Source: Octopus vulgaris (taxonomy: Eukaryota). From it: a DNA stretch of 64,000 nucleotides. Within the stretch, counting starts at the first letter, position 1. Each line of letters begins with the position of its first letter. The notes beneath the pieces were generated by a model. That model worked only from the letters and a program-made list of their open reading frames with translations, made no database searches and had not been told where the DNA came from. This document shows, in pieces, positions 3,133-54,953 of this stretch. The translations under genes were made by a program, and so were the position numbers. The stretch is from assembly GCA_951406725.2 (NCBI GenBank), contig CATOCA020000001.1:11656001-11720000 (forward strand). Reading direction: 5' to 3'.

Positions 3133-3334
3133 TGTAGGATGCCTTAATAAATAAAAGCGATTTAGGAAGATTAGCTGGATATTAAGCTATTGTATGGTAC
3201 CGTTGTAAAACGTTTGAAAATGTTGGGCAAAACAGTTGCGGTCCCCATTTGGCCATTGATGATACGAATATCTTACGATAATAAAATATCGATTATTAAT
3301 TAAGATTAAGGAATTTTACTAGAAAATGTAAAAC

Positions 3335-3425
3335 ATGGAAGAATTTATTTCAGATACGAAAAAACTGGAGGAGAAGGATCTCCTGAAAGTGGCACGGCAA
3401 TTGGGAAGCAAATGGTGGCAAGCTG
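3335..3425 (+). CDS. Death-domain gene, shared exon (approx. DD helices 1-2): (MEEFIS)DTKKLEEKDLLKVARQLGSKWWQAG
   Basis: Perfect donor G|gtgagt at 3425/3426 (phase 1). Begins either at ATG 3335 (aaacATGG context) or at acceptor tttatttcag|3354. L..VA..LG..W pattern is typical of the DD N-terminus. Confidence 0.8.
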
Positions 3426-4449
3426 GTGAGTAGAAAATAATAATATCTAATTGATTTCTGTAAATGTTACTTTTACTTAAAGCTTTTGTATGTCAGATTG
3501 ACTGAGAACAGGTTCCATTCCTAATTTCCATTTGAAATGTTATATGTAAGATAATTCTATTAAATATATTAATGTAATTTAATGAAAATGGGGTAAAATG
3601 GATAATTAATAATACACAATAGAATCGATTTTGTCTTTGGCAAGAAGTGGACTAAAACAGGTTGTTGTTTAAGGGTAAACAGGTGAGCTAATGACAATGT
3701 TTTTGTTTGTCTTACATTTTTACTAAGTTTACTGCTTGGTATTTGTAAGGAAGGGAAATTAATATCCAGAATAAGTCTTGTTTATTCCACCGTAAGAATT
3801 TGAGGCAGGTTCTTCTTAGGATCATTGTGTAAACAGCAGATAATTTCAGCTCATATAACAAATATTTGACGTCTTAATCACATGGCATATGTCTGTAGAT
3901 GTTTTAACGAAAGACTAACTATAGAAAACTGATTAATCATATCATATTCTCTCTAGCCAAGAAGATAGAATTTTTCTAAGAGAATTTAACAGAGAATGAA
4001 TAGTCACAAGTCAAGCCAAACTGGAGGTGACCTCTCTCACTGAAACTGATATAATTATAACAGAACAGACTCAGGAGAATTGATGGAATCTAGAGTTCAT
4101 TGAGAATTGGTGAGAAGAATTATTTGGACAAGACTCAATTTGGATTGAATTTGACTCAGAATTATCGACTCTTGAAATATAACTGATCATTCGATTTTCA
4201 GTATCGTTTTGGGAATTTTGCAAGGTGATAGACTGCAAAGAGAGGCATTACTTCCATGAACTTTTGAATATCAGATTTGGGCATATTGAGGAGGCGGTTG
4301 ATTCAATATATTCAACCTCATTCACTAAAGGATCATATTGGGACTGAACACAGCATTTCAAAAAACAGGGCCTGGGTTACTCAACCAAGTTGGAATTGAT
4401 GTCCCATCTATAGATTGTCCGGAATAATTGGACATTCTTCGATGGGTGG

Positions 4450-5010
4450 GGGTACATTAGATGCTGTACAAAACAGGAAACAGATTGAGTGAGGTCCATG
4501 TTTCACGTTTAATTTTTGGAGCGGCAAGCAAGTTCCATAGCTTTCTAAAGAAAACAATTGTATCTTTCACACTGTCCATTTATGGTGGGATCATACGCGC
4601 ATGTCTTACTAGAGGCAACAATTTCAATAGGAAGCCATTTTTTACAAATCGTCTGACATGATGCAGCAGCCTGTATTTAAATACACATCGCTGGAATACA
4701 GAATATTGATAGTATACAACAAAGATGGTTGTTGAAATACTAATGTCTGTACATGGACGAACAACAGGACGTCTTCTAGAATATTCATCTACCACAGTAA
4801 AAATATATTCATTATGAGCAGCAGATGAAAGCAAACCAATAAAATGTCAATTAACTCACTGAAATGATCGTGATGCTTATCCTGTCAAACTATATTTCTT
4901 TGAAAATGTCGATGAAGATGTCTTCGTTCGTCAGGATCTACTTTATCAATATAAAAGCCTCAAAGATGAATTCGTCAGTTCTAAGCCACCATTATCTGTA
5001 TATGGACTGT
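4450..5010 (-). mobile_element. Degenerate Ty3/gypsy LTR retrotransposon remnant (integrase region)
   Basis: Minus strand FTVVDEYSR and NGQCERYN integrase-like motifs. Confidence 0.6.
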
Positions 5011-6124
5011 CAACACTATTACACCTTCTAAATTATTTAATAATTTATCAGTTGTTTAGTCAGGTATCTGCCTTCATCTGGAAGACTTCAGATTGTTCCA
5101 AGTGTGACGTTTCTGTCTTTTACTTGGAAGCGTAAGACTGCATCATTAAATGTGTCCTTTTTCAGATGTCACTACTTATCTTGAGTGACATGTCGTGGCC
5201 TCTCCACCTCCCAGTGTTCATCTAGTTGAGGATCACACTTCACTCACCGGTAGATATTCGTGAGTCTTCTTTCCTGCAAACTAAAACTCTTCGTATGTTT
5301 ACATTAAGAACTTTCCATAATCAGCTTCTCTCTAAATTGATGGCCTTGATCCAGTGAAATAAATTATTATTATTATGCGTCATCCAGACAGAATACTTCT
5401 TCTATAATATGTGAGATGTACCTGACAGTATTATATTAATAATCCAAAGAAGGTAAGGCATCGCACAAGACTATTTAAGCATTGGTCATGTTAAACTGCT
5501 ACTTCTCTGCATTGAGTGGTCACAACTCCAGTATTACTGAGATGTGATGAGAATGTCAGAGGAAAGATTCCTCAAACTGTGCCAACAGAGATAGACCCCA
5601 GGGTTAGACCAGCAATGAGATGGTCGGATTATAGTCATCGACTTTGCCGTTTATGCTTGGGAAGCCAACCAAAAAGTCTAATGACAATTGCTTCTGATAG
5701 GACTTTATGGAGGAAGTACTTGAGGGAATATCGTCAGGACCCCGCCAGGAATATTGAGCTGAGAAAATGAATGAGGAGATCAAATGGTTCGTTGGTGGTT
5801 TATGTTGATTCTTTAGGCTCTGATACACGTTTGCCTTTACAAACACTTCTCCTGCAATTTATTCACCATAAATATTCTCAAGTGTAATTTTCGTTCGATC
5901 TTTGAAATTTGTTTCTCCGTCTTCAGCCTTTATTTCAACTTCTCTTATTTTTGTCAACATCCTTAGAAATAGTAAACAGAGTCTTATATTTTTCATGTTT
6001 CTTAACTATTTCTTTAAGTCTCATATTCAGTTTCTTTGTTATATTTATAACAACCTACAGTACACGTCTTTCATATAATTGTTAATTTTTTGGCAATTAT
6101 TTCTTATTCTTATATCTTTTGCAG

Positions 6125-6330
6125 GTATTTTCTTGGACATTAAAACTTCCGAGCTGGACATTATCAAGCGTGACAATAGTAATGACATTGTAGAACAGAG
6201 CTATCAGATGATGTACAAATGGTTCACAAGTTGTGAACCAAAGAAACGTACAGCTGAAACAATAAATGCAGCTCTTGAAGAAGCTGAATGTTATAATGCC
6301 CTTCAATGTCTATCGTTGGACAAAAACTGA
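6125..6330 (+). CDS. Death-domain gene, terminal exon A (approx. DD helices 2-6): GIFLDIKTSELDIIKRDNSNDIVEQSYQMMYKWF...AALEEAECYNALQCLSLDKN*
   Basis: Polypyrimidine tract + gcag acceptor in phase 1, joins exon 3335-3425 in frame; DD signature EQ.YQM...W and final helices. Confidence 0.85.
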
Positions 6331-6589
6331 ATCTCTGTGTAGTTGCTGATCTTATTAAGTCCAAGGTCTACCTTCGCCAACAGATACCCATCATCAAATG
6401 CCTTCCATCCAGGACCATCCTATCTTTATCCAAATTATTGACAACCCATAAGCACATTGTCCAATGTGTCCTTGTTTAAGGTGATAAATTGCGAATCAAA
6501 GAGGATTCAGCTACTAATTGTAGCACGTCTATAGACCACAGAAAAACTCCCTGAATGATTTGGATTTCTTGCTAAGGATTAAGGTTTGA

Positions 6590-6595
6590 AATAAA
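6590..6595 (+). terminator. Polyadenylation signal for DD exon A
   Basis: AATAAA ~260 nt after the stop, followed by a GT-rich (tgt)n element; positionally conserved in the second copy. Confidence 0.6.
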
Positions 6596-6795
6596 GATAA
6601 ACTTTGAAATGTCCATTTGTTGTTGTTGCTGTTGTTGTAAATCTAATCACCTCCCTAAACACTCCCATTGTTATAAGAACAGTTTTAATATCCTCTGGTA
6701 TATTGACAGTTACTTGCCTTCATTTATAGCTGAGAGTAGAATGTCTGGTACAGAAATATTAATGTCCTTCCTCTGTGTGTATCATATAGCGATAT

Positions 6796-6975
6796 ATTTC
6801 TTTATTGCCCACAAGGGGCTAAACATAGAGGGGATAAACAAGAACAGGCAAAAGGAGTAAGTCTATTACATCGACCCCAGTCCGAAACTGGTACTTTATT
6901 TATCGACCCCTAAAGAATGACAGGCAAAGTCGACCTCGGCGGAATTTGAACTCAGAATGTAACGACAGACGAAAT
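6796..6975 (-). mobile_element. tRNA-derived SINE with Meta-like central domain, 5' part missing at the CR1 insertion
   Basis: Reverse complement contains GAGTTCAAATTCC (B box) and GGTCGACTTTGCC..GGGGTCGATAAA; matches the copy at 34140. Confidence 0.8.
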
Positions 6976-6976
6976 G

Positions 6977-8856
6977 TTTAGTTAGTTAGTTAGTTAGTTA
7001 ATTTTTTGGCTCAAAAAGCAAAAAATCAAGGCCATGTAGGAGGACATGGAGTTATGTACAGGGTGGTGTTCATGTAAAGAGTTCGGGCCACTTGTGGTCA
7101 AGGGAGACTTTGAACCGAGCGGTCGTCGGCATCTTCACCATCTCGTCTGGCAGCTTATTCCACGGATCCGCAACACGGACGGAGAAAGTCCCTCTCCTTC
7201 GATTGAGATGAAATCGTCGCAGATAGAGCTTTTCGGAATGACCCCGCAGCCGACGCTCTGGAGCAGGAGTGAAGAACTGCTCTTCGAGAGGTTACACTTT
7301 CCGCTTATGATGTTGTGAGCAAGAATGAGATCACCACGGCGTCGTCGTTTTTCTAGAGAATAAAGGTGGAGCGTCTTCAGCCTTTCTTCATAAGACAAAT
7401 TCTTGAGACCAAGAACGATGCGGGTAGCCAGCTTCTGGACTCTTTCGAGATGCTGTATGTCTTTGAGGAGATAAGGAGAAGAGGCTTGAATCCCGTACTC
7501 CAATATGGACCCCACCAGCGTGACATAGAGCGGTAGGAATATGGCTGCTGTGAGCATTCCGAATGACCGTCGAATCAAGAACAGAATTCCGCGTGCTTTG
7601 TTGGCAGCATGGACGCACTGGGCCGAAGGCGAAAAGGAGGAATCCACCAAGATACCCAGGTACTTTACCTGATCGGTCCTCTCCAGCAGCAGACGACCCG
7701 GCTCGAAATCAAGTTGAGTTGCAGGAGGAGAGCCAACAGGCAGATGACAGGACTTTGACACGTTCAGACACAGGTCCCATTCGTTAGACCGTCTCCAAAT
7801 TTGGTGGAGGCATCGACGAAGATCCTCTATATCACCGCGAAAAGCGACCAGTTTGACATCGTCAGCAAATAGAGGGCAAGTCATTTATGAAGACTAAGAA
7901 CAATAAGGGCCCAAGCACTGAACCTTGAGGCACGCCACTGCTCGCACTGGAGACGTCGGACCGCGAACCATTCACTTGGACTTGGAAGGAGCGATCTGAG
8001 AGGAAGGCAACAACCCATCGTACTATATCCTGATGGAAACTATATGCTTGAAGCTTGACAAGTAATAGGCGGTGGTTTACCGAGTCCTAAGCTTTGGCAA
8101 AGTCCAATAAAACGATGTCAACAGCATCACTATCATCGAGGATGCGCGTCACCAATTCTTCCATTACCAGTAAGTTGGTCAAGCATGATCTCTTCGGCAC
8201 GAAGCCGTGTTGGGAATCAAAGATAGAGGCTGTGTTTTGGAGGTGGAGCAACATACTTTTCTTAAGGATGGTTTCGAACATCTTGCTGATTATTGATGTA
8301 AAGGAAACCGGTCGGTAGTTAAGCGGGTCTTCGCGGCTCCCTTTCTTGAAAATTGGGCAGATTATCGCTGTTCTCCAGTCCGCAGGTATAAAGGTATAAC
8401 ACCCGTCGCCAATGACATATTGAATAGACGTGTTAAGGGCTCGCAGATGACCGGAGCCAACGCTTTGATAACCCGTGGGTGTATGCCGTATGGGCCGTGA
8501 CCCTTGTTGACATCGAGGCCTTGAATAACGCGTTCGACTTCGTCGCGCGTGATGACCAATCTAGGCATTGGAGGTACCGATCTATCAAATGGAGGGGGTT
8601 CACGACCATCATCTTGTTTGAAAATAGTTGAAAAAACCTCGGCAAATAATTGACTCTGTTGATAAGGGGCCTCAAACAATACGCCTGTAGAGTCTACCAA
8701 CGTTGCAAATTGGTTGTTCAAGCGGGAATTCCGTTGGACATGGGCAAATAAGGTTTTTGGATTGCTACTGGCGTTTGCCGCGATTCTGTATTCATATCTG
8801 AAGCGTTCTTCCTTTTCAATTTTCACGGCTCGGTCTCGTTGAGTTTTGTAATGCAT
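6977..8856 (-). mobile_element. 5'-truncated CR1-like LINE (ORF2 RT, disrupted) with (TAAC)n tail
   Basis: ORFs 8362-8856, 8087-8281 and 7135-7884: GPYGIHP, QHGF, LDFAKA, GVPQGSVLGP, FADDVKL, LEKRRRRGDLI; (ttag)n at 6977-6998. Confidence 0.9.
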
Positions 8857-8857
8857 A

Positions 8858-9086
8858 TTTCTGTACTACCCACAAGGGACTAAACACAGAGAGGACAAAC
8901 AAGGACAGACAAACGGATTAAGTCGATTACATCGACCCCAGTATGTAACTGGTACTTAATTCATGGACCCCGAAAGGATGAAAAGCAAAGTCGACCCCAG
9001 TAGAATTTGAACTCAGAATGAAACGGCAGACGAAATACGGCTACGCATTTCACCCGGCGTGCTAACCACTCTGCCAGCTCGCCGCC
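8858..9086 (-). mobile_element. tRNA-derived SINE (Meta-like domain family)
   Basis: Full-length homolog of 34140-34366 in reverse orientation. Confidence 0.85.
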
Positions 9087-9104
9087 TTGTGTATCATATA
9101 GTAA

Positions 9105-9482
9105 TGGATGGATGGAAGCACTCCTTCGGTTACGACGACGAGGGTTCCGGTTGATCCGATCAACGGAACATCCTGCTCGTGAAATTAACGTGTAAGTGGC
9201 TGAGCACTCCACAGACACGTGTACCCTTAACGTAGTTCTCGGGGATATTCAGCGTGACACAGAGAGTGACAAGGCCGGCCATTTGAAATACAGGTACAAC
9301 AGAAACAAGAGTGAGAGAAAGTTGTGGTGAAAGAGTACATAGGGATCACCACCCCCTGCCGGAGCCTCGTGTAGCTTTAGGTGTTTTCGCTCAATAAGCA
9401 CTCACAACGCCCGGTCTGGGAATCGAAACCGCGATCCAATGACCGCGAGTCCGCTGCCCTAACCACTGGGCCATTGCGCCGC
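9105..9482 (-). mobile_element. tRNA-derived SINE, second family
   Basis: Reverse complement begins GGCGCAATGGCCCAGTGGTTAGGGC...GGTTTCGATTCCC (Pol III A/B boxes). Confidence 0.8.
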
Positions 9483-10299
9483 CACCATATAGTAATAGTG
9501 TCTATATGAATATTTCACTTTGTATTGTTGTGGTTGAAGACAGAGTCGGGGTGGTTGCATAAAGAATCAGGTGGTTGGGTGAGCAATTAAGAACTACTTT
9601 TGATTTATATTCTAGCCTTAGGATTATCATTATTTACTAAGTACTGCAGTTAGTTTTTCAGTGAAAACTTTATGATTTTCCATATCAAAATAAATCCAAA
9701 ATTTAAATATGTAATAATAACTGTGCTGAAAAATCCTGTCATATTAAAATAATTACACATTTGTTTTTTTAATTCCATGTGATTTTGGGAAATCCACAGT
9801 GTCTCCCTCTTTTCAGATAACTTCTGATAATGGAAAAGCACTATTTTCCCCCTAAAATATTACCCTTTAAACTGCACGACTTTTATTCCATTTTAATTTG
9901 CAATGAAATATCGAGTTTTTGCATCATGTACTCAGATTAAATAAGTAAAATTTATGAGATGTGGCAGGAAGCTCCGCCGTGCAAAATTTAGTGAAACAAG
10001 AGAGGAAGACTCCTAAGCATTATCCACTCGTTATTGGATTCTTTTGTGATTGGAGTGAATAAAGTTGGTTGATCTGAAATTAAATACAAAAAAATATTTA
10101 AATTACATCAAATTTATTTCAGAAAATGATAAGCAGTTATTAATAGAAATTATTAGTATTAAAACGAATTATTAGGTATCAAAATTAGTACAGAATTGAT
10201 TAGATTTGATTTAATTTCAGCTCATGAGTTGTGGCCATGCTGTGGCACCGCCATTTGGTGTTGCTATGTAATTTCACTTCACTGATTCTTTTTAGAAAG

Positions 10300-11040
10300 T
10301 GACATTTGGTGCATGAGGGAGTTTAATGCCGCAGCCCTCATCTGCACCTCCTACTATGAAGTTGGTTCATATGGAACACTTGACAGTACGGGGCCCAGTT
10401 TCATTTTGCAGATACCTACATACACCCCATGCATGTCTCTCTGGTCATTCGGGAGGATATTGAAGAGATGCGGTCCCTTGAATCCCAGGCTGTTGCAGCA
10501 TCATGTCCTATAACTTGATGGCAAATTTGAAGTCCTTGGCACTATGCAGAGGTGCCCTGTTCTAGTATTTGTGTAACTCTCGATGCTAAAGTTTGGGCAT
10601 GTCTTCCAGATGTACATATGACATATCTTTCTCGCCTACGCTCTAAGGAATTGAGTCTTAATCTCTTGAGTCTTTCCCAGCAACGTATATGTTGCATAAA
10701 GGGTAGCTTCGTGTAGATTTGTTGCATTGCCTCAAGTCCTGAAATGAATGTGACACTGGATGGTGACCATAGCTGAGAGCAATAGTCAAAGTGGCTTAGG
10801 ACAAGTGTCCTCCAGAGGAACATCATGGTTTACTGGTCTCTTGTTCTAAAAGTTCTAAGAATCCATCCAGTCAGTCACCTGCATTTCATTGCCAACTTAG
10901 CAACATGAACATGGTAAGATGCATCATTACTCATGTAAATGCCCAGGTCTCGCACTGACTGTGTCTCTGGCATTGCAATCCCTCCAGGTCCAGTGTATTT
11001 ATTGGGTATTGCATTTAGAATAATGAGAAATGTGTCACGC
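10300..11040 (-). mobile_element. CR1-like LINE 3' fragment
   Basis: VRDLGIYMS, LSHFDYCSQLWSP, LERRRERYVI. Confidence 0.8.
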
Positions 11041-11042
11041 AG

Positions 11043-11881
11043 GTGCGAGCCTACAGAGTTACAGCTTACAGCCATAAAGAAAGGATCAGAGTATACAAAG
11101 GAGCCATGAAGAAATTTGATAATATATTATGTAATGAGAGGAATGGGATTTGCCCACTCTTTAGGAGCAAGCCATGGAATACTATGGAAAGGACAAAGAA
11201 GAGAATAGGGAAGGCCACATCTTGGTATGATAGCTTCAAATACCAGAGTGTCATGTTCGTCGACACCACCCCTAGAGGTGAACTGGTGTACCTATTTAGA
11301 AGGGCCCTAGACAAACTTAAGCTAAGGATTAAGGTTGTTGAAAAGCCAGGCAACACTATCAAATCCATAATCGGTAGAACCTACCCTTTTTAGTTGAACC
11401 CCCTGTACGGATAGGTACTCTGCTGTGTGTAGATTTAGCCCACAAACAAACTGTAGTGTCAGAAATGTAGTCTATAGTATAAGATGTATAGAAGGACGAT
11501 GCAGTAACAAGACAACGACATACGTTGGGGAAACAGCACGAAGCATAGGAGAGCGAATAAATGATATTGGAGAGAACTTAAAGAAGAAAAGAGCTCATCG
11601 GTTCTATACCAACACGCCCAGCAGGAACACGGGGGATCAATCAATAACATAGAAATTAAAATATTGTCCACACATAGAACAGACGCAACAATCAGACAAA
11701 TTACGGAAGCTACACACATAATAGAAGAAAAGCCTAGCCTGAATAGGAAACTAGAATGGAACACTAGCACACACCACAACATATGACAGAAGAGGATCCC
11801 CATAAACTGGTTAAAATATAAACAAAACTGAAAACATAAACTAAAATGAAATACACAGAGAAATTAACATATGGAAGTAAA

Positions 11882-11918
<37 letters not shown>

Positions 11919-11975
11919 ATTATTATTATTATTATTACTAGTATTTTTGTAATACATACATACATACAAGCAAGC

Positions 11976-12021
<46 letters not shown>

Positions 12022-12350
12022 GTGGATGTAAACACATGAACAAAATAAGAATAAACAAAAACAAAAACAAATTACACGGACGTATATAAACAGAAGATAC
12101 AAATATCCCCCCCCGCACACACACTAACTAAACATAGACGCACATAGAGAAATACGCATGAGCAAATGAAGACATACAATAGAAATACAAAATGGCTGAC
12201 GGTTAGTAAGGAGAGACACAAATAAGAAAGAAGACAGCAAAGGACCACTGATGCGGTCACAGGAGTGTGACGAAAGAACTCTGGCCGAAATAAGATTAAG
12301 ATTAATGTAAAAAATAAATAACACTGAAGCAAAGTAACACCAAATATATA
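11043..12350 (+). mobile_element. Penelope-like element 3' fragment with GIY-YIG endonuclease and 3' terminal region
   Basis: C..RNVVYSIRC...C....YVGETARSIGERI (GIY-YIG signature); hammerhead-like motif at 12245-12284. Confidence 0.8.
12245..12284 (+). ncRNA. Degenerate minimal type I hammerhead ribozyme-like motif
   Basis: cca-CTGATGC-g-gtcaca/tgtgac stem-GAAA-gaactc-tgg; one core mismatch (CUGAUGA to CUGAUGC). Confidence 0.55.
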
Positions 12351-12849
12351 GTGCGTGTGTTTGTTTTTTTTTTGGTTAAACTGGCAAAATGACCATTCTG
12401 AAATACAACAAATTCTATTAAATATATTAATGTAATTTAATGAAAATGGGGTTAGCGTCATTGGTAAAATGGATAATTAATAATACACAATAGAATCGAT
12501 TTTGTCTTTGGCAAGATGTGGACTAAAACAGGTTTTGTTTAAGGGTAAACAGGTGAGCTAATGACAATGTTTTTGTTTGTCTTACATTTTTACTAAGTTT
12601 ACTGCTTGGTATTTGCAAGGAAGGGAAATTAATAACCAGAATAAGTCTTGTTTATTCCACCGTAAGAATTTGAGTTAGGTTCTTCTTGAAACAACCATTG
12701 TTCGGACCATTGTGTAAGAAGAAGGTAATTGCAACTCATATCACCATATTAGAATGACGACGTCTTAATCACATGACATACGCCAGCAAAATGGTTGAAT
12801 CATTTTCATATTAAGCAAAGCTCCTAATATTGTATTAACTTTGTGATTG

Positions 12850-13420
12850 AGGAAGTTTCTTTCTCGATTTAAAGATGTTTTAACTCAGAATTCTGCGAGA
12901 TATTTGAGAAAAGAATCAATAGGCCTTCCTCCCTGATTTACTGATGCATCTATTGCAAAACCAGAAGCATCTCTTGCAACACGAATGGGTCAAGTTTCAT
13001 CTTAGCCACAACTACTGAGTCTTCGACATCTTTCTTCAGTTGGTGAAAAGGTTCAAGTCCAGCTTCAGAAAAATGAAATGTACTAGTTTTAATTTTAACC
13101 TAAATATTACATATCCACTTTAAATGATATGAAAAGTGGACATGTTATGGTCAGTTTGTGTCTTCAGGACAATGCTTATGATGTCCCCCTATGACTGTAA
13201 ACCTATTGCTATTAAGTCTCGTTCTTGCAATATATCATATCAAGATTCGTCAAATTACAAGTCCGATATCTCCAGGCAGAAAAGATTATTAAGACTTTTT
13301 CAAGTTGCTGTTTCTACCAAGGAATGCCATAAAAAATGAATGGTTGTTGATTATTCTCAGAAAGAGAATCGATTCACCAAACACGATGTGAATCAACAAC
13401 ATTGAATTTCTGATGAAATC
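12850..13420. mobile_element. Ty3/gypsy remnants (RNase H on minus strand, RT fragment on plus strand)
   Basis: Minus: RDASGFAIDASVNQGGRPI (TDAS..AI.A.L.Q.GRPV motif). Plus: MVVDYSQ..NRFT. Confidence 0.6.
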
Positions 13421-14278
13421 AATTATAGGTTCTTGTGTAGGAAGCTGATAATTAATTTCAATTTAAATCACCATACTGGAATGACTTCTTACCACATTAC
13501 TTCAATATAAAGAAGAAGCTTAATAGAGGACACTCAACAGAACCATATCACTTATAATCGTTAAATATCAGTGTTAATCCAGCAGACTTAAGTTTAAAGG
13601 CGTTCCAAGTGTGACGTCTCTGTCTTTTACATAGGACAACATCCTTAAATGGTCCTTTTTAAGATGACAAATTGTAGTTCTAGTGACCTGTAGCTTCTCC
13701 ACTGTCCAGTGTCCATCTGGATGTGGATCATACTTCACATGTAGGGCTTAATTGTCCGTAAGTGAATGATGTAGATGTTGAATAAGTTCTGTCTACTTTC
13801 CTTCGACCTCTTTACAAATTGTGGCTTTGATCCAGTGAAAGATATCGTCATTATGTGCCATGCATCCAGAGAGATTAAGCCAGTGTCTTCCATAATTTGT
13901 GTTGTTTACCTAACAGTTTATATTAATTAGTCAGAGCAGGTGAGGCATCACGCTAAGAAATGACTTATTTCAAGCATTAAACATGTCAAGTACACATTTT
14001 CTAGTATGAAGGACAAGCGATTAGAATTTTACAGAAAAGGATAGCAAGCTTAAGCAACCATGAGGAAACCACGAATTATTTGGGTGGTGCCTGAGAACTC
14101 TAGCCTTGTAACCGTTCTAGAAATACTGTGCTAAGAAAATGAATGTCTTATATTTTTCAGGTTTCTTCACTATTTTGTATTTCTCTATCGATATAGTTTT
14201 TTGTTATATTTATAACAACAACCTTTATATTATTGTTAATGTTTTTCCTGTAATTTCTTATTCTTCTATCTTCAACAG

Positions 14279-14484
14279 GCATATTTTTGGGGATTAAAAG
14301 TATCCAACTGGGAATTATCCGGCATGACTTTTTTGGTAATGTTCAAGAGCAGAGCTTCCAGATGCTGCTCTACTGGTCAACACATTGTGATCCGCAGGAA
14401 GTTACGGTGGATACATTGAGGGCAGCTCTTGTGGAAGCTGAATGCTTCGCTGCACTCAAATGTCTATCATTACAAGAAAAGTGA
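14279..14484 (+). CDS. Death-domain gene, duplicated terminal exon B: GIFLGIKSIQLGIIRHDFFGNVQEQSFQMLLYWS...AALVEAECFAALKCLSLQEK*
   Basis: Acceptor ttcaacag in phase 1; same 206-nt length as exon A, no indels or premature stops; 34/68 aa identical to exon A by manual alignment. Confidence 0.8.
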
Positions 14485-14739
14485 ATTGTGTAAATGTTGT
14501 TTAGTCACCAGATCAACCATGACCAAACAATGATCTATGATCAAATGTCTCCCAGCCATGACCATCCTGTCTTTATTGCTAATGTAGAAAACTCAGAACC
14601 ACATTGTCCCACTTGTCCTACCTTAAGATGATGAAGTGTGAATTTTGGTAAATTTGGTTATTATTTCTAGCAGATCTGTCAACCAAATAGAGACCACTTT
14701 ACTGGTTTGGCTCCCTTGTAACCAGAAATTACATTCTGA

Positions 14740-14745
14740 AATAAA
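14740..14745 (+). terminator. Polyadenylation signal for DD exon B
   Basis: AATAAA ~256 nt after the stop, followed by (tgt)n; homologous to 6590-6595. Confidence 0.6.
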
Positions 14746-14896
14746 TATAAACTTTGAAATGTTCAATTGTTGTTGTTGTTATTGTTGTGCATAGAATCAC
14801 CTCCCTAAACAATTCCATTGCTTTACAGAGTATTTTAATAACATCTGGTATATTGATAGATATCCTTAGCCTTGAATAGAATGTCTGGTATATATG

Positions 14897-14962
<66 letters not shown>

Positions 14963-14963
<1 letters not shown>

Positions 14964-15121
14964 AGGAGTGGCTGTGTGGTAAGTAGCTTGCTTAGCAACC
15001 ACATGGTTCCGGGTTCAGTCCCACTGCGTCGCACCTTGGGTAAGTGTCTTTTACTATAGCCTCGAGCCACCCAAAGCCTTGTGAGTGGATTTGGTAAACG
15101 GAAAGTGAAAGAAGCCCATCG

Positions 15122-15157
<36 letters not shown>

Positions 15158-15399
15158 AGTGTGTGTGTGTGTGTGCGTGTGTGTATGTTTGTGTGTCTGT
15201 ATCTGTCGCCCCAACATTGCTTGACAAGCGATGCTGGTGTGTTTACGCTCCCGAAACTTAGCGGTTCGGCATAAGAGATCGATAGAATAAGTACTAGGCT
15301 TACAAAAAAATAAGTCCTGGCGTCGATTTGTTCGTCTAAAGGCTCTGCTCCAACATGGCCACAGTCAAATGGCTGAAACAAGTAAAAAAGATTAAAAGA
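14963..15399 (+). mobile_element. Octopus-type tRNA-derived SINE with internal (TA)/(TG) microsatellite
   Basis: GGAGTGGCTGTGTGGTAAGTAGCTTGC...GGTTCAGTCCC head; ends GAAACAAGTAAAA; homologous to 19335 and 36785. Confidence 0.9.
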
Positions 15400-15402
15400 G
15401 TA

Positions 15403-15481
<79 letters not shown>

Positions 15482-15500
15482 ATATCTATCTATCTATCTA

Positions 15501-15577
<77 letters not shown>

Positions 15578-15589
15578 ATGTCTTTTTTA

Positions 15590-16265
15590 TCTCTATATAT
15601 AAAAGTAAAATGGGCGAATGTTACATGTTTGCGTGTTTCATTTAGTGGTTATGCAGGTTTCAATGGCAGTAGGCGTGCTCGGAATTCGGCGTAAATTTAC
15701 AGGGACATGTACAATGAGGCGAGAAAGCGACTTGACTAGGTTAGAAATCTCCATCACAAAAGCTGTGGTTACTAGGGCAACAAAACCCAGACTTTGACAA
15801 GTGTTTGTCGTTTCTCACTTGCGGTTACCAACTTGTCTTCCTCGATCTCTCGCTTTCATAACTTCCCTCCACTTTCTTTCTATATCAACGTTCGACAGCT
15901 TCCACTTTCTTTACCTCTCCGCCTTCGCCATCTCTGTATCACTCTTCCTCCCATCACCCCTCTCTCTCTCTGTACATCAGTCTGTATCTAAGGAAGGAAA
16001 CCGTTGACAGCCGAAAAGTTTAAATATTCCCGCCTCAGGTCTTTTGCAACGGTGGATTCTTATCGCCCACCACCCCTGCATAGTCGTGATAACAGATATT
16101 GATCAGATATTTATTGTGTTAATTTCTATATGTGTATATATATATATATGTGTGTGTGTCTGTGTGTGTATAATGTCTATATATAATGTACATATATATA
16201 TATTTTATATACAAATATTTAATGTATGTATATATATATATAAAGTGTAAATATCTATATCTATC

Positions 16266-16306
<41 letters not shown>

Positions 16307-16387
16307 ATGTTTATATATATATAAAATGTGATTACATATGTATACATAATGCGTATATATATTTAGTATATATATTTAATGCGTATG

Positions 16388-16431
<44 letters not shown>

Positions 16432-17780
16432 CATATAATGAGTGCATATGTGGTCGGATTGAGTTGAAAATATGCACAACTCTGTTAAAAGTGCTGGCTA
16501 GTTTGCATGGCAACTTTGAGTTTGCTCAATTGAAAGGCGTGACCTCTAGGGCAAAAGTATTCATCTTTTAAAAAAGTGGCCCGCGTAGACCCGAATGAAA
16601 TCGGGTTATAATACTTAAGCAAGTAAAATAATAATATACTATTTTAATCCCGAGCAAGGCCGGGTATCTCTGGTATTCTAATATATATTTGTGAAAAGGG
16701 CGGACGTTGTCTCACATAACAATTGTGCAGGCAAAATTGTTAGTAAATGTAGTCAGATTGTGCTGAAATTTTGCACACCTGTTGAAATCCTCAACAGCCA
16801 ACTACCTCCCGGAATTCCACCTCATGACTTTAGACTGAAGATTGGTGTTCCAGTTATGCTGCTAAGAAACGTGGAACCACCAGAACTATGCAACGGTACG
16901 CGTCTGATCATCAAAAACATGGGACCTTAATTCTGACGACAATCATTCTGAGCGGACCATCTGCTGGCGTAACAAAGTTATTAAGCCCCATGAGCCTTAG
17001 TCCCTCGGCGGTGCCATTTGAATTTACGCGACGGCAGTTTCCCGTCAATGAGCATCTACAAGGCACGGAGACAGTCGTTACAAGTAGTTGGCCTAAATCT
17101 GACACAGCAGTTATTTATCCACGGTCACCTATACGTCGGATGCTCCCGTGTCGGCAGTCCACACAATCTCTTCATTTCTGGTAATCCGGGCAACACCAGG
17201 AACGTTGTCTACAAAGAAGCCCTGCAAGAACACTTTTGAATCTTCCGCCATGACTCTCCCGTCGCTGGGGTCATTGTAACTTTCTCAAATTTTTAGCCCA
17301 ACTGCATCCACCGTCTTCATGTTGCTGGCCGCATCTGCAAACTGACCACCTCTGCCACCAGTCAAACTCCCGACCCATGGGTTCACGTCCCGACACTGAT
17401 TCCGCAAAATTAGGTTGGGTGTGACTACATATTGTATCCAAAACATTGCAAGTGCAGTCGTATTATACTATTTCAGTTTTGTGCAGAGACCAGACTGGTG
17501 TTTTGTATTTTTCCAGCATTTTCCCGTCATTCTTTGCCCTTCACATCTGCATCCGCGAGGTTTCTTCAATCACTTCTCAAAGTCTGTTTAAACATTTGGC
17601 ATTCTTTTTTACATTACCAATTTCTAATAAAAGTTTTTTTTTTTGGTGGGTGGGAATTCCTCATCCTTAAAATGTGGCCCGAGTAGACCCGAATGAAATC
17701 GGGTCATAATACCGAAACAAGTAAAACAATTAAAAAAACTGCTATTTTAACCCCGAGCAAAGCTGGTTTTCTCTGCTAGT
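15590..17780 (+). mobile_element. Composite Helitron remnant with Pif1-helicase fragment and two 3' ends
   Basis: 5' [65 protein letters not shown] at 16770-17239. Duplicated 3' hairpin modules at 16577-16680 and 17675-17780, the last ending CTAG-t. Confidence 0.85.
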
Positions 17781-18739
17781 GTATCATATAGGAATAGTAT
17801 TTCTATGTAATATATGATGTGTCTATGGATGTTTCTATTTGTTCTGTAGTGATTTAAGGCAGGTTTTCCCAATGTGGCAATGGTTGCATGTTCTTTATTT
17901 TATATTCTACCAATATGATCATTGTTACTCAATAGTTATTTTAGATTTTAAGCAAAACGTCAAACTTTACCATTGTACATATAAAAAATAATCCATAAAT
18001 TTAAAATTTGAAAATTTAGTGAAACGCAACTCGTAAGTATTGTCCAATTGTTATTGGATTCTTACGTGATACGAGTGAACAGACCTGATTATTTTGAAAT
18101 TTAACATAAAATTATTTAAATTACTTCAAATTTATTTCAGAAATTGATAAGCAATTACTATTAGAAATTATTGGTTTAGAAACAAATTATATGGTATCAT
18201 CCTTTATATAAAATAATTTTGAATAAATTGCTGACATATCTTACTAATTTTTAGCTCCAAAAACCTGGAATGAACTAATATTCAAAGATTATATGTGATG
18301 TAAAAACACAACAAAAATATAATAAACATGATCTTTCTTCCTGAAAGTTGTACAAAACAATAAGTCACTGATTATGTAAACTAAGAGGAACATATTCAAA
18401 TTTAAATTTAATTTGTAACAATAGACTTATTTATAAAAACGACGTTTTGAAAAACAGAGAAAAGAGAACTCTATCACTGACTCTCTGAAACCAAAAGGAT
18501 AACTTTCAAATGTGATGACTCAGAATCAGTTCCTTTATTGAGTGAGATCTTCATCTTGTTCTGCTCAAAGACGGTGACAGTAATTAGCATATTGTAATTA
18601 AAGACAAAATATATTCTCTATAGAAAAATGGCCAAATCTATCGAGGAATAAAACTGCAGAAAGTAACGACGATGATATAACTGAGGAGAGTGAAGAACTT
18701 GAAAGAGTGTCATGAATTCAGAAATAAGTAATTCTTTCA

Positions 18740-20260
18740 GAACGAGCAAAGACGAAATATAATGGATTTACTTTTACTTTGGACAAATATTGAAAGAATT
18801 CCGGTCAGCTTTATTTGTAAGAATTGTTTGGTGTCTGAAAATATGAAGCCCACAAAAATTTAAAACGTTTTGATTCAAGACATTCCTTTATAATAATAAG
18901 ACTATAGAATTGTTTTGAAAGGCTATCAGTACACAGAAGCAATCTCTTGAGCAAGTTATTCACTCAATAGACAGAGTGAAATACTTAAGGGCATCTTTTG
19001 AAGCTGTTTATTTAATTGCAAGAGATAAAAGAAACCCCAAACAACATCGGCGAAGAACTTGTATTAGCAGCAGCAATGAAAACATCAGGAATTATTCATT
19101 GAAATAACATGCAGATGAATCAAAGTTCGTCTGCGAAATGATAATGTTGGTATTTGTATTTCAGAAATGAATAATGATTAATTGGAGTAAATTATGCGAA
19201 GGTTTTTAAACAACGTCTCTAAACATGCAATTCAATTAGATGAAGCAAGTAAAATTACAAACTATAGTAATATAGAATAGGGTCCAGGAAGATTGGTTCG
19301 TTAGATGGGGACTTTGTAGCTAAAAGTAGACGATAGGCGCAGGAGTGGCTGTGTGGTAAGTAGCTTGCTTACCAACCACATGGTTCCGGGTTCAGTCCCA
19401 CTGCGTGGCATCTTGGGCAAGTGTCTTCTGCTATAGCCCCGGGCCGACCAATGCCTTGTGAGTGGATTTGGTAGACGGAAACAGAGAGAAGCCTGTCGTA
19501 TATATGTATATATATATGTGTGTGCATATGTTTGTGTGTCTGTGTTTGTCCCCCTAGCATTGCTTGACAACCGATGCTGGTGTGTTTATGTCCCCGTCAC
19601 TTAGCGGTTCGGCAAAAGAGACCGATAGAATAAGTACTGGGTTTATAAAAGAATAAGTCCCGGGGTCGAGTTCCTCGATTAAAGGCGGTGCTCCAGCATG
19701 GCCGCAGTCAAATGACTGAAACAAGTAAAGGAGAGATAGAACTAGGCCTTGGATGGTATAAATGTAATGTAGTATGTAATAAAGATGCAGAAGCTATGAT
19801 AAGGAGGGAAATTGGGGTTCAAGTTAAATTTGTAAGATAAAAACCCTATTTCTGTCACTTATTGCAATCTTCACTGAGAGGTGTTTGTTTCTCAGAAAAT
19901 ATTTCCAGATACTTTTGCAATATTACAAGAAGCGGTTAAAATTATTAACGTTATTAAAATTCTTGTTCTCAATAGTTTCCTCTTCTGTGAGAAAATGGCA
20001 TCCAATTTCAGCAAAGTTTTATGAAGAACAGAAGTGTGATGAATCTGAAATGGAGAAGCTTTGAAACAATTGTTAGAACTTTAAGAAAATGAAGACATAA
20101 TATTCCTGCTGGGATTAAATTCAGATTTGTTCCACAATGAAGATTCGTTATACAAATTATTCTATTTGTCAGACATTTTTGGACAACTTAATAAACGTAA
20201 TATGTCTGTACAAAAGGGAAAAACACTGAAATTTCTTATTTAAATAAAAGATTCAAGAAA
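18740..20260 (+). mobile_element. Highly degenerate hAT (Buster/Charlie-like) transposase remnant, interrupted by a SINE
   Basis: C..CLVSENMKP, ASFEAVYLIA..K, IGEELVL, AIQLDE and C.LH-like motifs in broken frames. Confidence 0.65.
19335..19735 (+). mobile_element. Octopus-type tRNA-derived SINE
   Basis: Homologous to 14963-15399. Confidence 0.9.
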
Positions 20261-38270: not shown

Positions 38271-38370
38271 NNNNNNNNNNNNNNNNNNNNNNNNNNNNNN
38301 NNNNNNNNNNNNNNNNNNNNNNNNNNNNNNNNNNNNNNNNNNNNNNNNNNNNNNNNNNNNNNNNNNNNNN
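38271..38370. other. Assembly gap (100 N)
   Basis: Run of n. Confidence 1.
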
Positions 38371-39852: not shown

Positions 39853-39909
<57 letters not shown>

Positions 39910-39910
39910 T

Positions 39911-42975
<3,065 letters not shown>

Positions 42976-42976
42976 T

Positions 42977-45900
42977 AGCTAGTCTTAAGAAGCTGCGCTA
43001 TAAGCAATGCTTACATGTAGAGAACCCTAAACTGACAGATCCATCTCCTAATATAAGAATGGATGCTCGTCATGCTTCAAGGTCAACAAATCAAACAATA
43101 AACCGCATTGGTCGTTGCGCTGATTACAAAAGACCACGTACCCGAAAATTGAACCAAATTCTGATTGAAAAATCAGCTACTGGATTATATCTTCCCAACA
43201 CACAGGAGCTGGACGTACCCCACAACCGGAATATTCCAACAGATGGCCATCCATGCTCATCACCAAATAATCAAAACAAAAAGAAGGAGAAATGGTCTAG
43301 AGAAGATAATAAAGAAGTTCTTGAGGCCTTCTACCATGCCATATATTTCCCCACAGATAAATCTAGCACTGTACAAGCATACTTAAACTGGAGACAGAAA
43401 CACCCTGAAGTAAGACCCTACATAGACAGTAACAAACTTGCCAACGTCAGAAGAAACATTATAAAAAAAAAGATACTGACTGAAGTAGAGATTGATCAAG
43501 TTAGACAAGCAATATCGGATAAAATGAACGAAGCTGCAGCTAGAGAAGATAATACAGAGGAAATAATTTTAGACCAGCCCAGGGCTGATAAAAACGAAGT
43601 GAGGATTGAAAGAGTTAGTATAAGTGATAGGCAAAGTGAAATACTCCCTGAACCAATCATAAACACTAAGACAGATGAACATCAAATAGATAAAGAAAGT
43701 CACACAAATATTGACCCAACAGAACTACATGAGCTAAAAAATCAAACCATGATTGAATGGCTGAAAATTAAAGAAACCAGCATGGATGAACGTGATACAC
43801 TTCCTAAAATCCGCAACTCTAACCAAAACATGAAAATAATTGGTAAAATCCGGCTTGCACTTAAGGATATAATTTCAGCTAATGATGTTGATATCACAAA
43901 CCTCAACCACCTATACTATGCATCCGCGAAAATCTCAACGATCCTATGTGGTGTAAAGATTAGAAAACGGCAACATTCCCACAAAAAGCCTTCTTGGCAA
44001 GAGCGTCTGCAACAACAAAATAAAATATTTAGATCTGACATTGAATATTTGAAAAACCTTAAGGCTCACAAGACTACCAAACCTACAAAAACCCCAAAAT
44101 TACTGAAAAAATACAATATGAAAACTATACTTGATATTGATGCCACCATAGAAACCATCAAACAAAAGGTATCTGCCAAAGCTGCCCGCATAGCGAGGTA
44201 TGAAAAGCGTGTTAGATTTTTCAAGGACAACAACATGTTCAAAAATAACACCAAGAATTTTTACAGGAAGATAGGAAAAACAGCGTTTACTGCAGGGTCT
44301 GTACCATCAAAAGAAGAAGTGCAGAGATTTTGGAATAAAATCTGGGCAGAAGAAAAAACACACAACAAAAAGGCCCCCTGGATTGACAGAATATCTACAG
44401 AACTGGACCCCTTAGAAGAGCAAAAGTGGGATGGTGTCAAGGTAGAAGATATAAGATCTGCTCTCAGGAGGTCAAGCAAATGGAAGTCTCCAGGAAAGGA
44501 TAAAATTCCTAACTTCTGGCTGAATGCCTTCCCAGAGAGCCATGAACTGCTAACAGAACTGTACAATGATGTTTTGCAACACCCTAGTAGGATGCCTCCT
44601 TGGCTAGTTAATGGGTTAACATTCCTGCTTCCAAAAAGTGAAGAAACAAATGAACCAAAAAACTATAGACCCATAACCTGCTTAACAACTATGTATAAAA
44701 CACTAACATCTGTCCTGACGGAATATACCTATAGTTTTTTCACAGACAGCAGCATATTCCCTAATGAACAGAAAGGATGTAAACGTGGATCCTACGGCTG
44801 TAAAGACCAACTACTCATCAATAAGGTGATCTTAGAAGATTGTCACAAACGACACAAAAACTTATCAATAGCCTGGATAGACTACAAAAAGGCTTTTGAT
44901 AGCCTACCACATAGCTGGATTAGGAAATGCCTGGAAATGTATAAGATAGCACCTACTCTGCGAAACTTCTTGACTGTAAGTATGAGATTATGGAGAACCA
45001 CACTAACTCTGAACAGTGACAATGAATCCCTAAATGCTGGTGATATAAAAATTTCGTGTGGCATTTTCCAGGGTGACTCACTGTCACCACTCCTCTTTTG
45101 TTTATCCTTAATACCTCTCTCAAAGCTGCTCAATGATGCGCAGTACGGGTATAAAATGTTTGATAAAAATATAAATCATCTCATTTACATGGATGATTTA
45201 AAGCTTTTTGCAAAAAATGACCAACAACTCAAGGGCTTACTAACGATAGTCAAACAATTCAGTGACGACATCAGAATGCAATTCGGCCTCGATAAATGTG
45301 CAAAAGCTACCTTTATCAAAGGCAAAATGACAGAAACATCTAACGTTAACCTTGACCAGCAGAATGTCATAAAAGAACTAGACCCAGCGGAGAGCTACAA
45401 GTACCTAGGGGTAATTGAAGGGAACGGAATAAGGCATTCAGAGATGAAGGAAAGGATCAGGAGAGAATGCTATCGAAGAGTGAGAGCAATACTCAAGACA
45501 GAGCTGAATGCAAGAAACAGGATCGAAGCGATCAATGCATTAGCCATACCAGTCGTGACTTACAGTTTCAATATTGTTAACTGGTCAATTACTGAAATAT
45601 GTCAGCTCGACAGAAAAATAAGAAAACTGTTGACAATGCATAGAATGCACCACCCTAAGGCAGATACAGAACGACTCTATCTGCCAAGAAAAGAGGGAGG
45701 CCGTGGTCTTTTGCAACTGGCAATAACAATGAAGATTGCTACAATTGGCCTAGACACCTACCTGAAAAACTCTGAGGACTGGATGTTAAAACTTGTCTCA
45801 AAACATGAAAACAAGAAAGCATCATACTCAGTCACAAAACAGGCAAAGGAATATCTAAGTGAATTCCGAATACAACCAATTTCGGAATTAGAGATAGACA

Positions 45901-49160: not shown

Positions 49161-51856
49161 AAAAGATTTACCTGAGATAAAAGAAAAGCTGAAGCAAGAT
49201 ATCCTTGCCAAAGCACAAAGGATCCGCCGGTACGAGAAACGCCAGCGCTTCTTTGAACAAAACAAAAAGTTCAACTCCAACCCCAAAAAGTTCTACCAAG
49301 AACTTGGCAAAAATAAAAATAAAATAGAAATCACTACAGTACCAACGGCAGAAGAAGTGGAAGAATTCTGGAGAGAAATAAGGTCAGCGAACGAACAACA
49401 AAAAAAAAAGAAGTATCGAAACAACAAACTCAGCATCTGAGCAACTTTGGACCCCTATAACAACTGAAGAGGTCACCCAGGCACTGCAAAGACTAAGCAA
49501 CTGGAAGGCACCTGGGCAACTTCTGGTTGAAATATCTAACAGGAATGCACAAAAAGCTGGCTGAAAACTTTAACAGCATGCTAGCAGAGCCAGAGACAAT
49601 GCCTGAATGGCTCACGAAGGGGAAAACCATCTTAATTCCCAAATCAAATGAGACAGCAAAACCAGAAAACTACAGACCAATAACCTGTCTCCCTACAATA
49701 TACAAGGCACTTACTGCAGTGTTATCGCAAAGGTTGAACAAGCACCTGGACGAAAACAACCTGTTTCCAGAAGATCAGAAAGGATGCCGCAAAGGCTCAT
49801 ATGGCTGTAAAGATCAACTAATGATTAATAAAGCCATAACTGAAGACAGCCACAGAAAGAAGAAAGGCCTCAGTATGGCCTGGATTGACTACAAAAAGGC
49901 GTTTGATAGCATCCCCCATCCATGGATCCTCGAAACACTGGCCATTAACAAAGTAGCACCAACAATTATAAAATTCATAGAGCACTCTATGAATAAATGG
50001 CAAACAGTGCTACAGCTCCAAACAAAAGAGGGACTCATGAAAACCAAAGACATCCCCATTAGAAGAGGAATATTCCAGGGAGCCACGCTCTCTCCACTCC
50101 TTTTCTGCTTGGCACTGTCACCTCTATCTGATATGCTAAATAGAACTGGATGCGGATATAAATGTTACGGCAAAACGATCAGCGACCTTTTATATATGGA
50201 TGACTTAAAACTATACGCTGCAAATGACAAACAGCTGGAAACACTATTAAAGACAGTTCATGGATTTACCAAAGAAATAGAAATGAAATTTGGATTAGAA
50301 AAATGTGCCAAAGTAACCATGAAAAGAGGAAAACTAGTTAAGAGTAGTAACATCACACTAGATAAAACCAATGAAATAAAAGAATTAGACCAATGCCAAA
50401 CTTACAAATACTTAGGAATCCATGAACTAGATAAGACACAACACACACAAATGAAAGAGAAAATAAAAAAAGAATATTATAGACGAGTTAGATCAATACT
50501 AAACATAGAGCTCAATGCTAAAAACAAGATAATAGGTATCAACACTTTAGCTGTCCCAGTTATAAGTTACAGCTACAATATCCTTAACTGGACACTAAAT
50601 GAACTGACCAAAATAGATAGGAAAACAAGAAAAATAATGACGGTCTAGGATGCATCACCCAAAATCTGACATAGAAAGACTATATATACAACGTATAGAA
50701 GGTGGTAGAGGCCTTATACAGCTGGAAAACTACTATAAAATAACCACCATAGGACTGCAAAAATATCTACTTCAGAAGGAAGGAAAACTGATACAAATAG
50801 CGGCAAAACACGAGCAAAACAAAAAACTGTTCTCAGTATTTAAGGAAGCTGACAAATACAATCAAGAAATCATACCACCTAATAAATATAAAGAAGAAGA
50901 AGAAGAAGAAAATGAAGAAACAACAAAAGCTATAAAACAAATGAAATCCAAACTAAAAACAGAACAGCAACGAACCATGATAAAACGATGGCAAGAAAAG
51001 CCCCTTCGTGGTAAATACTGGACTAAACTAAACGCAAAAGAAATAGACAAAGAAAAATCCCAGAAATGGTTGAGAAGCTCAGGACTCAAAGCAGTGACAG
51101 AGGGATTTTTAATTGCAGCACAAGACCAAAGCCTCCCCACCAGAAATTACCAAAAACATGTAATGAAAAGAAATATAACAAGTAACTGCAGAATATGTGG
51201 AGATGGACAAGAAACAATAAATCATATTATCTCTAGCTGCCCAGTCCTAGCTAAGAAGGAATATATTCACAGACATGACAAAGTTGGAACCTACATACAC
51301 TGGAAGCTATGCCAACATTATGGAATAACAACAGAAAAAAGATGGTATAGGCACACACCAGAAAAGGTCACAGAAAACGAGAAAGCAACCATACTCTGGG
51401 ATATGCCGATACACACAGATAGAGAAATTAAGGCCAACAGACCAGATATAGTTGTCAGAGATCATGAAGAAAAAAATGCTTTCTAATTGATGTATCAATA
51501 CCGGCTGATGACAACGTTTCTCTAAAAGAAATGGAGAAACTTTCAAAATACAAAGACCTGGAAATAAAGGTAACCAGAATGTGGAATCTAAAAACAGAAA
51601 TAATTCCTATCATAGTAGGTGCATTAGGCATGATAAAAAAAATATTCAGACAAATACATAACAAAAACACCAGGACTTACAAACACATATAACATACAGA
51701 AAATTGCACTACTAGGCACTGCCCACATCCTACGCAGAACACTTTCCATACAATAACCATCAGAGCATCACAATAAATCACAGCACATACCGAAGGCACA
51801 CAGAGCTGCGCTCGGTAGTGAAGTGAAAGCACGCTATAAAAATAAAACTACTGAAT
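49161..51856 (+). mobile_element. 5'-truncated R4/Dong family A copy with frameshifts
   Basis: ORFs 49527-50648 and 50650-51486 nearly identical to 40008-41936; followed by (TAA)n. Confidence 0.95.
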
Positions 51857-51857
51857 G

Positions 51858-51945
<88 letters not shown>

Positions 51946-51978
51946 TAATAATAATAATGATAATAATAATAATAATAA

Positions 51979-52155
51979 TTTAACCTAAATGTATTTTAAT
52001 TTAACCTAAGTGTATTTTAATTTAACCTAAATGTATTTTAATTTAACCTAAATGTATTTTAATTTAACCTAAATGTATTTTAATTTAACCTAAATGTATT
52101 TTAATTTAACCTAAATGTATTTTAATTTAACCTAACTGTATTTTAATTTAACCTA
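51979..52155 (+). repeat. 21-bp minisatellite (tttaacctaaatgtattttaa), ~8 copies
   Basis: Direct inspection. Confidence 0.95.
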
Positions 52156-54686: not shown

Positions 54687-54953
54687 CATCAAACATTTTC
54701 ATCAAACATTTTCATCAAACAATTTCATCAAACATTTTCATCAAACATTTTTCATCGAACATTTATCATGAAACAATTTCATCAAACATTTTCATCAAAC
54801 ATTTATCATCAAACATTGTCATCAAACATTTTCATCAAACATTTTCATCAAACATATTCATCAAACATTTTCATCAAACATTTTCATCAAACAATTTCAT
54901 CAAACATTTTTCATCAAACATTTTCATCAAAATTTTAATCAAACATTTTCATC
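54686..54953 (+). repeat. 13-bp minisatellite (catcaaacatttt), ~20 copies
   Basis: Direct inspection. Confidence 0.95.

Follow-up and report, generated by a model that had tools for sequence, protein, structure and literature searches.

A death-domain gene of Octopus vulgaris with two homologous last exons: probable capture of a last exon by recombination between paralogues

Exon shuffling by non-allelic homologous recombination is a general mechanism in multigene families. Ankyrin and RING domains are combined in the Mind bomb proteins MIB1 and MIB2, whose architecture includes an N-terminal MIB/HERC2-ZZ and REP substrate-binding region. A third kind of system is the insect serpin-1 gene PpSerpin-1, for which alternative C-terminal exons that were duplicated within the gene and give rise to 21 spliced forms have been described (PMC10513286). 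In this work we analyzed a 64,000-nucleotide stretch of Octopus vulgaris DNA (G000:C31:11656001-11720000, hereafter the window), which holds the 3' end of an ankyrin-RING-linker-death-domain gene. As in a serpin-1-type cassette, two intact homologous last exons, A and B, stand behind one shared exon (exon 12), and an original prediction had read them as alternative terminal exons that arose by duplication. We consider it likely that the window instead carries the 3' end of an intact but recombinant family copy, which captured last exon A by recombination with a paralogue in intron 12. No description of this family was found in the open-access literature (supplements were outside the scope). 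Single numbers below are window positions; the features lie on the plus strand, except for two pieces of intron 12 to which no strand is assigned.

Gene model and the two last exons

The gene starts 31 kb upstream of the window and is intact, with 13 exons and 529 amino acids; in the model from C31:11625058 the frame stays open for 529 residues with exon A or with exon B. Exons 1-11 lie upstream of the window (G000:C31:11625058-11655118). The first exon aligns to residue 1 of P0004, and all three of the ankyrin exons scanned (3/3) and the RING exon (29 versus 27 bits) exceed their Pfam cut-offs. The closest named proteins are Octopus proteins called 'MIB2-like', the label on P0001-P0006. Exon 12 (3354..3425; 72 nt, phase 1-1) is found in the sequence, the RNA contigs and the gene model, and codes for death-domain helix 1 to the middle of helix 2 (helices assigned from the model of the relative P0007). 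The phase-1 donor G|gtgagt predicted at 3425 is present. The exon itself is internal and not N-terminal as had been proposed, because its acceptor lies at 3353, contigs of runs X1, X2 and X9 splice upstream exons onto it at that position, and 11 more exons stand upstream; alignment to the closest named proteins places it midway in a long protein. The start codon put at 3335 was rejected since this position falls within the intron acceptor region, with the RNA joint at 3353, and a small adaptor made of the death domain only was rejected since the 13-exon, 529-amino-acid protein does not begin at that domain. The prediction of a single small exon held: blastn and tblastn detected no second copy of exon 12 between A and B or elsewhere in the window, and an alignment of 12150-12410 to exon 12 was dismissed as noise.

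The coding parts of the last exons (A, 6125..6330; B, 14279..14484) are both intact and 206 nt long, with a phase-1 AG acceptor, a stop and one AATAAA each (6590..6595 and 14740..14745), all as predicted. Exon A codes for the rest of helix 2 to helix 6, and the joint with exon 12 falls within helix 2. A and B are identical at 33/67 residues and 138/206 bases, and on 64 codons their ratio of nonsynonymous to synonymous divergence (dN/dS) is 0.37/0.75 (dN 0.37, dS 0.75). From each of them to its closest copies elsewhere dS is 0.02-0.09, i.e., 0.086 between exon A and its C29 and C10 copies, and 0.024 between exon B and those at C6 and C31:11.23 Mb. FastTree placed A and B in separate clades (support 0.995 and 1.000); the set for tree and dS kept 32 of 42 loci after stop- or gap-bearing ones were dropped, and includes one duplicate row and one broken copy. 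Because each exon is far closer to copies elsewhere than to the other, A and B are not the sister duplicates that had been assumed. A local tandem duplication of the last exon was rejected on the separate clades and the closer copies on other chromosomes.

Some further observations concern these exons. Three small phase 1-1 linker exons precede exon 12 (L041:5699-5776, L041:8177-8254 and L041:9062-9118, within G000:C31:11651699-11655118); two of them form a recent 2.5-kb tandem duplicate with the same peptide, and a CVQTE motif occurs in all three. In X1 and X2 the RING exon is spliced directly to exon 12 and the linkers are skipped. The database models P0001, P0003 and P0006 lack exon 12 and would therefore be without death-domain helix 1 and a portion of helix 2. 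In its end part (14442-14479), exon B departs from the four copies closest to it and is instead similar to a more distant type, that of C29:12.76 Mb/P0006; this is likely a short conversion tract. A B-type exon together with exon 12 is present in O. bimaculoides as well (P0007; 82% identical to exon B).

Mosaic structure of intron 12

Exon B, its flanks and all 12 exons upstream belong to the B clade, and exon A with its flanks to the A clade. Because the 12 upstream exons are B-type, A is, judged from sequence type, the newcomer. When 300-nt tiles were compared with 11 loci, the gene body and the B side were closest to B-type genes, and the A exon and its flank matched A-type loci only. Upstream and downstream of the module the tiles match B-type paralogues, most of them at 94-100% to C31:1.66 Mb, and the tiles in 5400-6900 and 9600-11100 are those confined to A-type loci; the left switch point lies at ∼3800-3900. 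Two stretches at the window locus, one from the last ankyrin exon to 3889 and one from 12411 to 20000, are colinear with the B-only paralogue at C6:135.43 Mb, which lacks A. The A module (3820..12410, ends approximate; ∼8.6 kb) thus sits inside a B-type gene and is absent from this paralogue. Its components are an intron of foreign type, exon A with its 3' flank, and pieces of transposons. On its left is the 5' segment of intron 12 (3553..3820), copy 1 of a direct repeat and likely the left crossover zone. On its right the B-type intron 12 resumes from about base +128 (12411..14278) without an exon 12 of its own, and its first part (12411-12692) is repeat copy 2. The two copies are identical at 260 of 265 aligned bases (98%), and each is ∼93% identical to C6.

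Within the module, a dispersed repeat (6978..8850) has 94% copies at C6 and C8 and is absent at this place from the C10 and C29 units; an open reading frame in it (7135-7881) gave no Pfam match. The 3' flank of the A module (9486..11018) is common to C10 (94%), C29 (91%) and C4:130.80 Mb (89%), and is followed by a Penelope-like fragment (11017..12410, position approximate), whose GIY-YIG match (E-value 0.008) is below the cut-off. This fragment begins in the same frame where the Penelope reverse-transcriptase piece of the C29 unit ends. Of the CR1/Penelope insertions predicted at 10.3-12.4 kb, the Penelope part stands as a Penelope-like piece, and the CR1 label for the other insertions was not established. 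At the loci C10:6.54 Mb and C29:15.79 Mb, exon A likewise precedes this flank, and there a Penelope reverse-transcriptase piece and B-type sequence come next; exon B is partly deleted in both.

The probable course of events starts with an old deletion that would have orphaned a B exon behind an A gene. The unit 'intron start - A - flank - Penelope - orphan B intron' would then have been copied, and a donor unit would have crossed over with an intact B-type gene on both sides of A, aided by homology at the module ends. In this haplotype, most transcripts would be expected to terminate at exon A, which is nearer and has a poly(A) signal of its own, and B would become an orphan or a minor form. 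On this view, the death-domain tail of a given ankyrin-RING body would have been exchanged at the DNA level. The original prediction had offered as a second option that B was orphaned where the Penelope piece sits. This fits the history of the A-B unit, with the difference that the body of the window gene is B-type and A the newcomer.

RNA contigs and the versions of exon 12

Four of 24 listed runs were aligned to 3200-6790 and four to 12330-14880, with X6 and X9 in both sets; X16, in the second set, is probably DNA. All runs are contigs without tissue labels or an RNA record, and were taken as spliced RNA since they are joined across a 2.7-kb intron. Exon A is expressed in 4/4 runs, after a version of exon 12 that reads GTG at the last codon of the exon 12-to-A joint, where the window has GCT (two letters differ). 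A-to-I editing was rejected as the source of this difference since the changes are C>T and T>G. One contig crosses the A joint unbroken in each of X1, X2 and X9. That of X1, 646 nt long, begins with a RING exon other than that of the window gene and continues across exon 12 as far as the end of A, otherwise identical; its RING end is exact at C31:4.00 and 4.70 Mb and is absent from the 100 kb upstream of the window. The exon-A contigs of X1 and X2 extend to 6608, where the aligner skips a repeat. In two of the four runs (X6 and X9) a contig aligned to 3426 continues with 27 letters identical to exon B (27-28 bases follow the GCT exon 12); these contigs probably end in GCT, as the aligner stopped at 3422 for GTG contigs.

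The RNA check suggested by the original prediction thus returned both kinds of joint, exon 12-to-A and exon 12-to-B, on the GTG and the GCT version respectively. Neither the window's own GCT-to-A joint (a clean 3425-to-6125) nor a GTG-to-B joint was among the loose ends shown for the four runs (six loose ends in 3200-6790 and eight in 12330-14880 were not shown, and contigs drop rare variants). Within the four runs each version of exon 12 goes with a single last exon, a pattern that favours separate gene copies over a splice switch. Contigs over the B intron deviate from the window by ∼2-3%, and 29 of the 36 differences tested match at least one of five paralogues (36 of the 40 rows shown; 27 further rows were not shown). 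A loose end at 14279, sought in order to read the exon before B, was absent from the displayed ones. Some stretches of exon B, as well as its 3' end, are without cover at 97% likeness and give no evidence either way.

These results bear on whether A and B are true alternative last exons in this haplotype, with exon 12 spliced, once A had been captured, to either of the two, so that one body carries two tails. We regard this as rather unlikely. Both exons, their acceptors and their poly(A) signals are intact, both frames give 529 amino acids, both junction kinds exist in RNA of organism A, and the locus is the only one of 22 same-strand pairs less than 15 kb apart with two whole stop-free exons (see below). 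The strict pairing of exon-12 version and tail, with the X1, X2 and X9 contigs unbroken across the A joint, argues against it, as does the decay of B in both sister units; compared with its closest copies, exon B has 4-7 replacement and 1-2 silent changes, not enough to demonstrate that selection retains it. A bolder form of the same idea is a splice switch present at birth: a one-step capture by ectopic recombination that left the old exon intact, so that carriers would make one ankyrin-RING protein with two different death-domain tails, and across the octopus family tail swapping would connect more than 100 variable ankyrin sensors to different signalling partners. We put this forward tentatively, as an improbable outcome.

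The combination of GCT with A was listed in 0/4 runs, as would be expected if the assembly had joined near-identical GCT-B and GTG-A copies or haplotypes via the shared exon 12 and intron start. The switch does fall within the 98% repeat, and the RING exon that precedes A in RNA was located at C31:4.70 Mb, in a copy without exon 12 or last exon within 60 kb. We nevertheless hold such a chimera to be quite improbable: there is no gap in 1-38270 or in the 100 kb upstream, the order A-then-B recurs at two other loci, so the link is old, and the two copies of the repeat, although more alike (98%) than either is to C6 (93%), are not identical. It is very unlikely, in our estimate, that B is still the end of the gene and that the inserted A, passed over in splicing, is a silent passenger in its intron. 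The body is B-type, and B is the sole tail listed behind the GCT exon 12; against this, A is nearer, with an acceptor and a poly(A) signal of the type used in A-type relatives, and the mismatched B-intron contigs suggest that the transcripts probably come from other B copies.

Capture of A by a B-type gene, the reading we prefer, has to be weighed against several observations. A contig of X9 with a depth of 155 matches the first 105 bases of exon B without a difference, which also fits use of this very copy, and exon B is intact here and broken in both sister units (C10 and C29). None of the runs can be assigned to the assembled animal, so that the reads do not show the haplotype itself. With rare variants dropped and loose ends undisplayed, a minor GCT-to-A or GTG-to-B joint is possible. 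Finally, a gene with the GTG exon 12 and A was not found in the assembly among the 40 of 250 candidates scored.

Death-domain fold, gene family and comparison with known systems

The fold was assessed on the relatives P0007 and P0004, not on the window's own spliced products. The P0007 model has a six-helix death fold over residues 101-180 (predicted local distance difference test score, pLDDT, 91-97), and its top Foldseek matches are death domains, with those of ankyrin-G, RAIDD, FADD and PIDD among them (identity below 30% in the structure matches). The P0004 model is likewise helical; Foldseek with the full-length P0004 model returned ankyrin proteins only. By sequence, the closest solved structure is the PIDD death domain (E-value 1.3e-6). 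The Pfam check against Death PF00531 (cut-off 22.6 bits) recovered exon A (25.9 bits) and not exon B alone (14.7 bits); among relatives, P0002 is above the cut-off (23.7 bits) and the B-type P0007 below it (22.2 bits). The claim that either splice gives a complete death domain is thus upheld by two open frames and the death fold of the relatives' models, with exon B alone falling short in Pfam; on these models, both spliced products would be complete death domains. By the definitions of the six death-domain interface surfaces given in PMC8403095, all six would draw wholly or partly on the last exon, and for this reason a tail swap could change binding partners. The part of the original prediction that held is that a swap would change most surfaces of the domain; a choice made by splicing did not fare as well, with RNA versions tied to one exon each. 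In the protein as we propose it, ankyrins would bind targets, the RING would ubiquitinate and the death domain would mediate assembly.

A genome search with exon A found at least 148 last-exon copies (150 of 162 candidates were scored); 121 of the 148 matches are stop-free within the match, and 83 are on C31 and C29. The paralogues show many other body/tail combinations. Among the 22 same-strand neighbour pairs (<15 kb), 17 are in two C1 arrays, all with stops, and three are on C31 with a stop in the upstream copy, one of these having a separate exon 12 for each last exon. The remaining two are C10, with a broken B, and the window locus, the only pair with two whole stop-free exons.

Other family loci were observed as follows. 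L118-L119 (G000:C31:7298138-7309294) is a tandem tail duplication with an exon 12 per last exon, the first with a stop near its end. The C1 arrays of last exons (G000:C1:216930652-216965055 and C1:102708591-102732827) hold 11 and 8 matches, all with stops, and the first has a period of ∼3.5 kb. L101 (G000:C31:4700001-4710000) is a copy of the family in which the RING exon carries a one-base frameshift and neither exon 12 nor a last exon lies within 60 kb. Its RING end is that found before exon 12-A in RNA, which might be explained by a broken allele, by an inversion partner or by an assembly fault. Two 3' gene fragments lie on C4: L079 (G000:C4:130.80 Mb), with exon 12 damaged and exon A deleted, and L076 (C4:131.01 Mb), with an exon 12 and no nearby last exon. 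Elsewhere in the window, 22.6-33.8 kb holds low-complexity repeats, both tandem and inverted, whose long open frames gave no Pfam match, 38271-38370 is a 100-N gap, and 39909-63404 contains several reverse-transcriptase open reading frames (RVT_1, zf-RVT) and internal repeats of 96-98% (39909-42157 versus 49722-51979, and 42980-44311 versus 53361-54693).

Read as a capture, the window locus would document in dated steps the exchange of death-domain tails among the gene bodies of this octopus family: a module passed from one paralogue to another, and the orphan exon was broken in two places and kept in one. Should carriers splice both tails, this would be a rare case in which a gene owes its alternative last exons to capture from another gene; otherwise it represents ordinary turnover in a family that recombines fast, and cautions that junction reads need to be resolved by gene copy before alternative splicing is called.

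Among known systems, the order of an ankyrin array followed by a C3HC4 RING is shared with Mind bomb MIB1/MIB2, and the MIB1 ankyrin structure 8v0e is among the ankyrin matches (rank 43). Unlike Mind bomb, the family of the window gene has a death domain at the protein end and more than 100 copies, and no MIB/HERC2 or ZZ-MIB N-terminus scored above cut-off in P0001-P0004; by architecture the window gene is not a Mind bomb orthologue. The death domains of PIDD1, RIPK1, ankyrin-G and RAIDD are a further point of comparison, with an identity below 30% in the structure matches. With serpin-1 the locus shares one body and several homologous terminal exons at a fixed phase, each altering the part that sets specificity. 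There, however, the exons were duplicated within the gene and their splicing was shown, whereas here they come from different clades, probably by recombination; within-gene duplication does not account for exons in separate clades with closer copies on other chromosomes, and as to splicing from a shared exon, the GTG version leads to A and the GCT version to B, with no cross joint listed among contigs, which drop rare forms. The likeness to exon shuffling lies in a mosaic gene with switch points in homologous introns; the difference is that here the replaced exon remains intact behind the new one.

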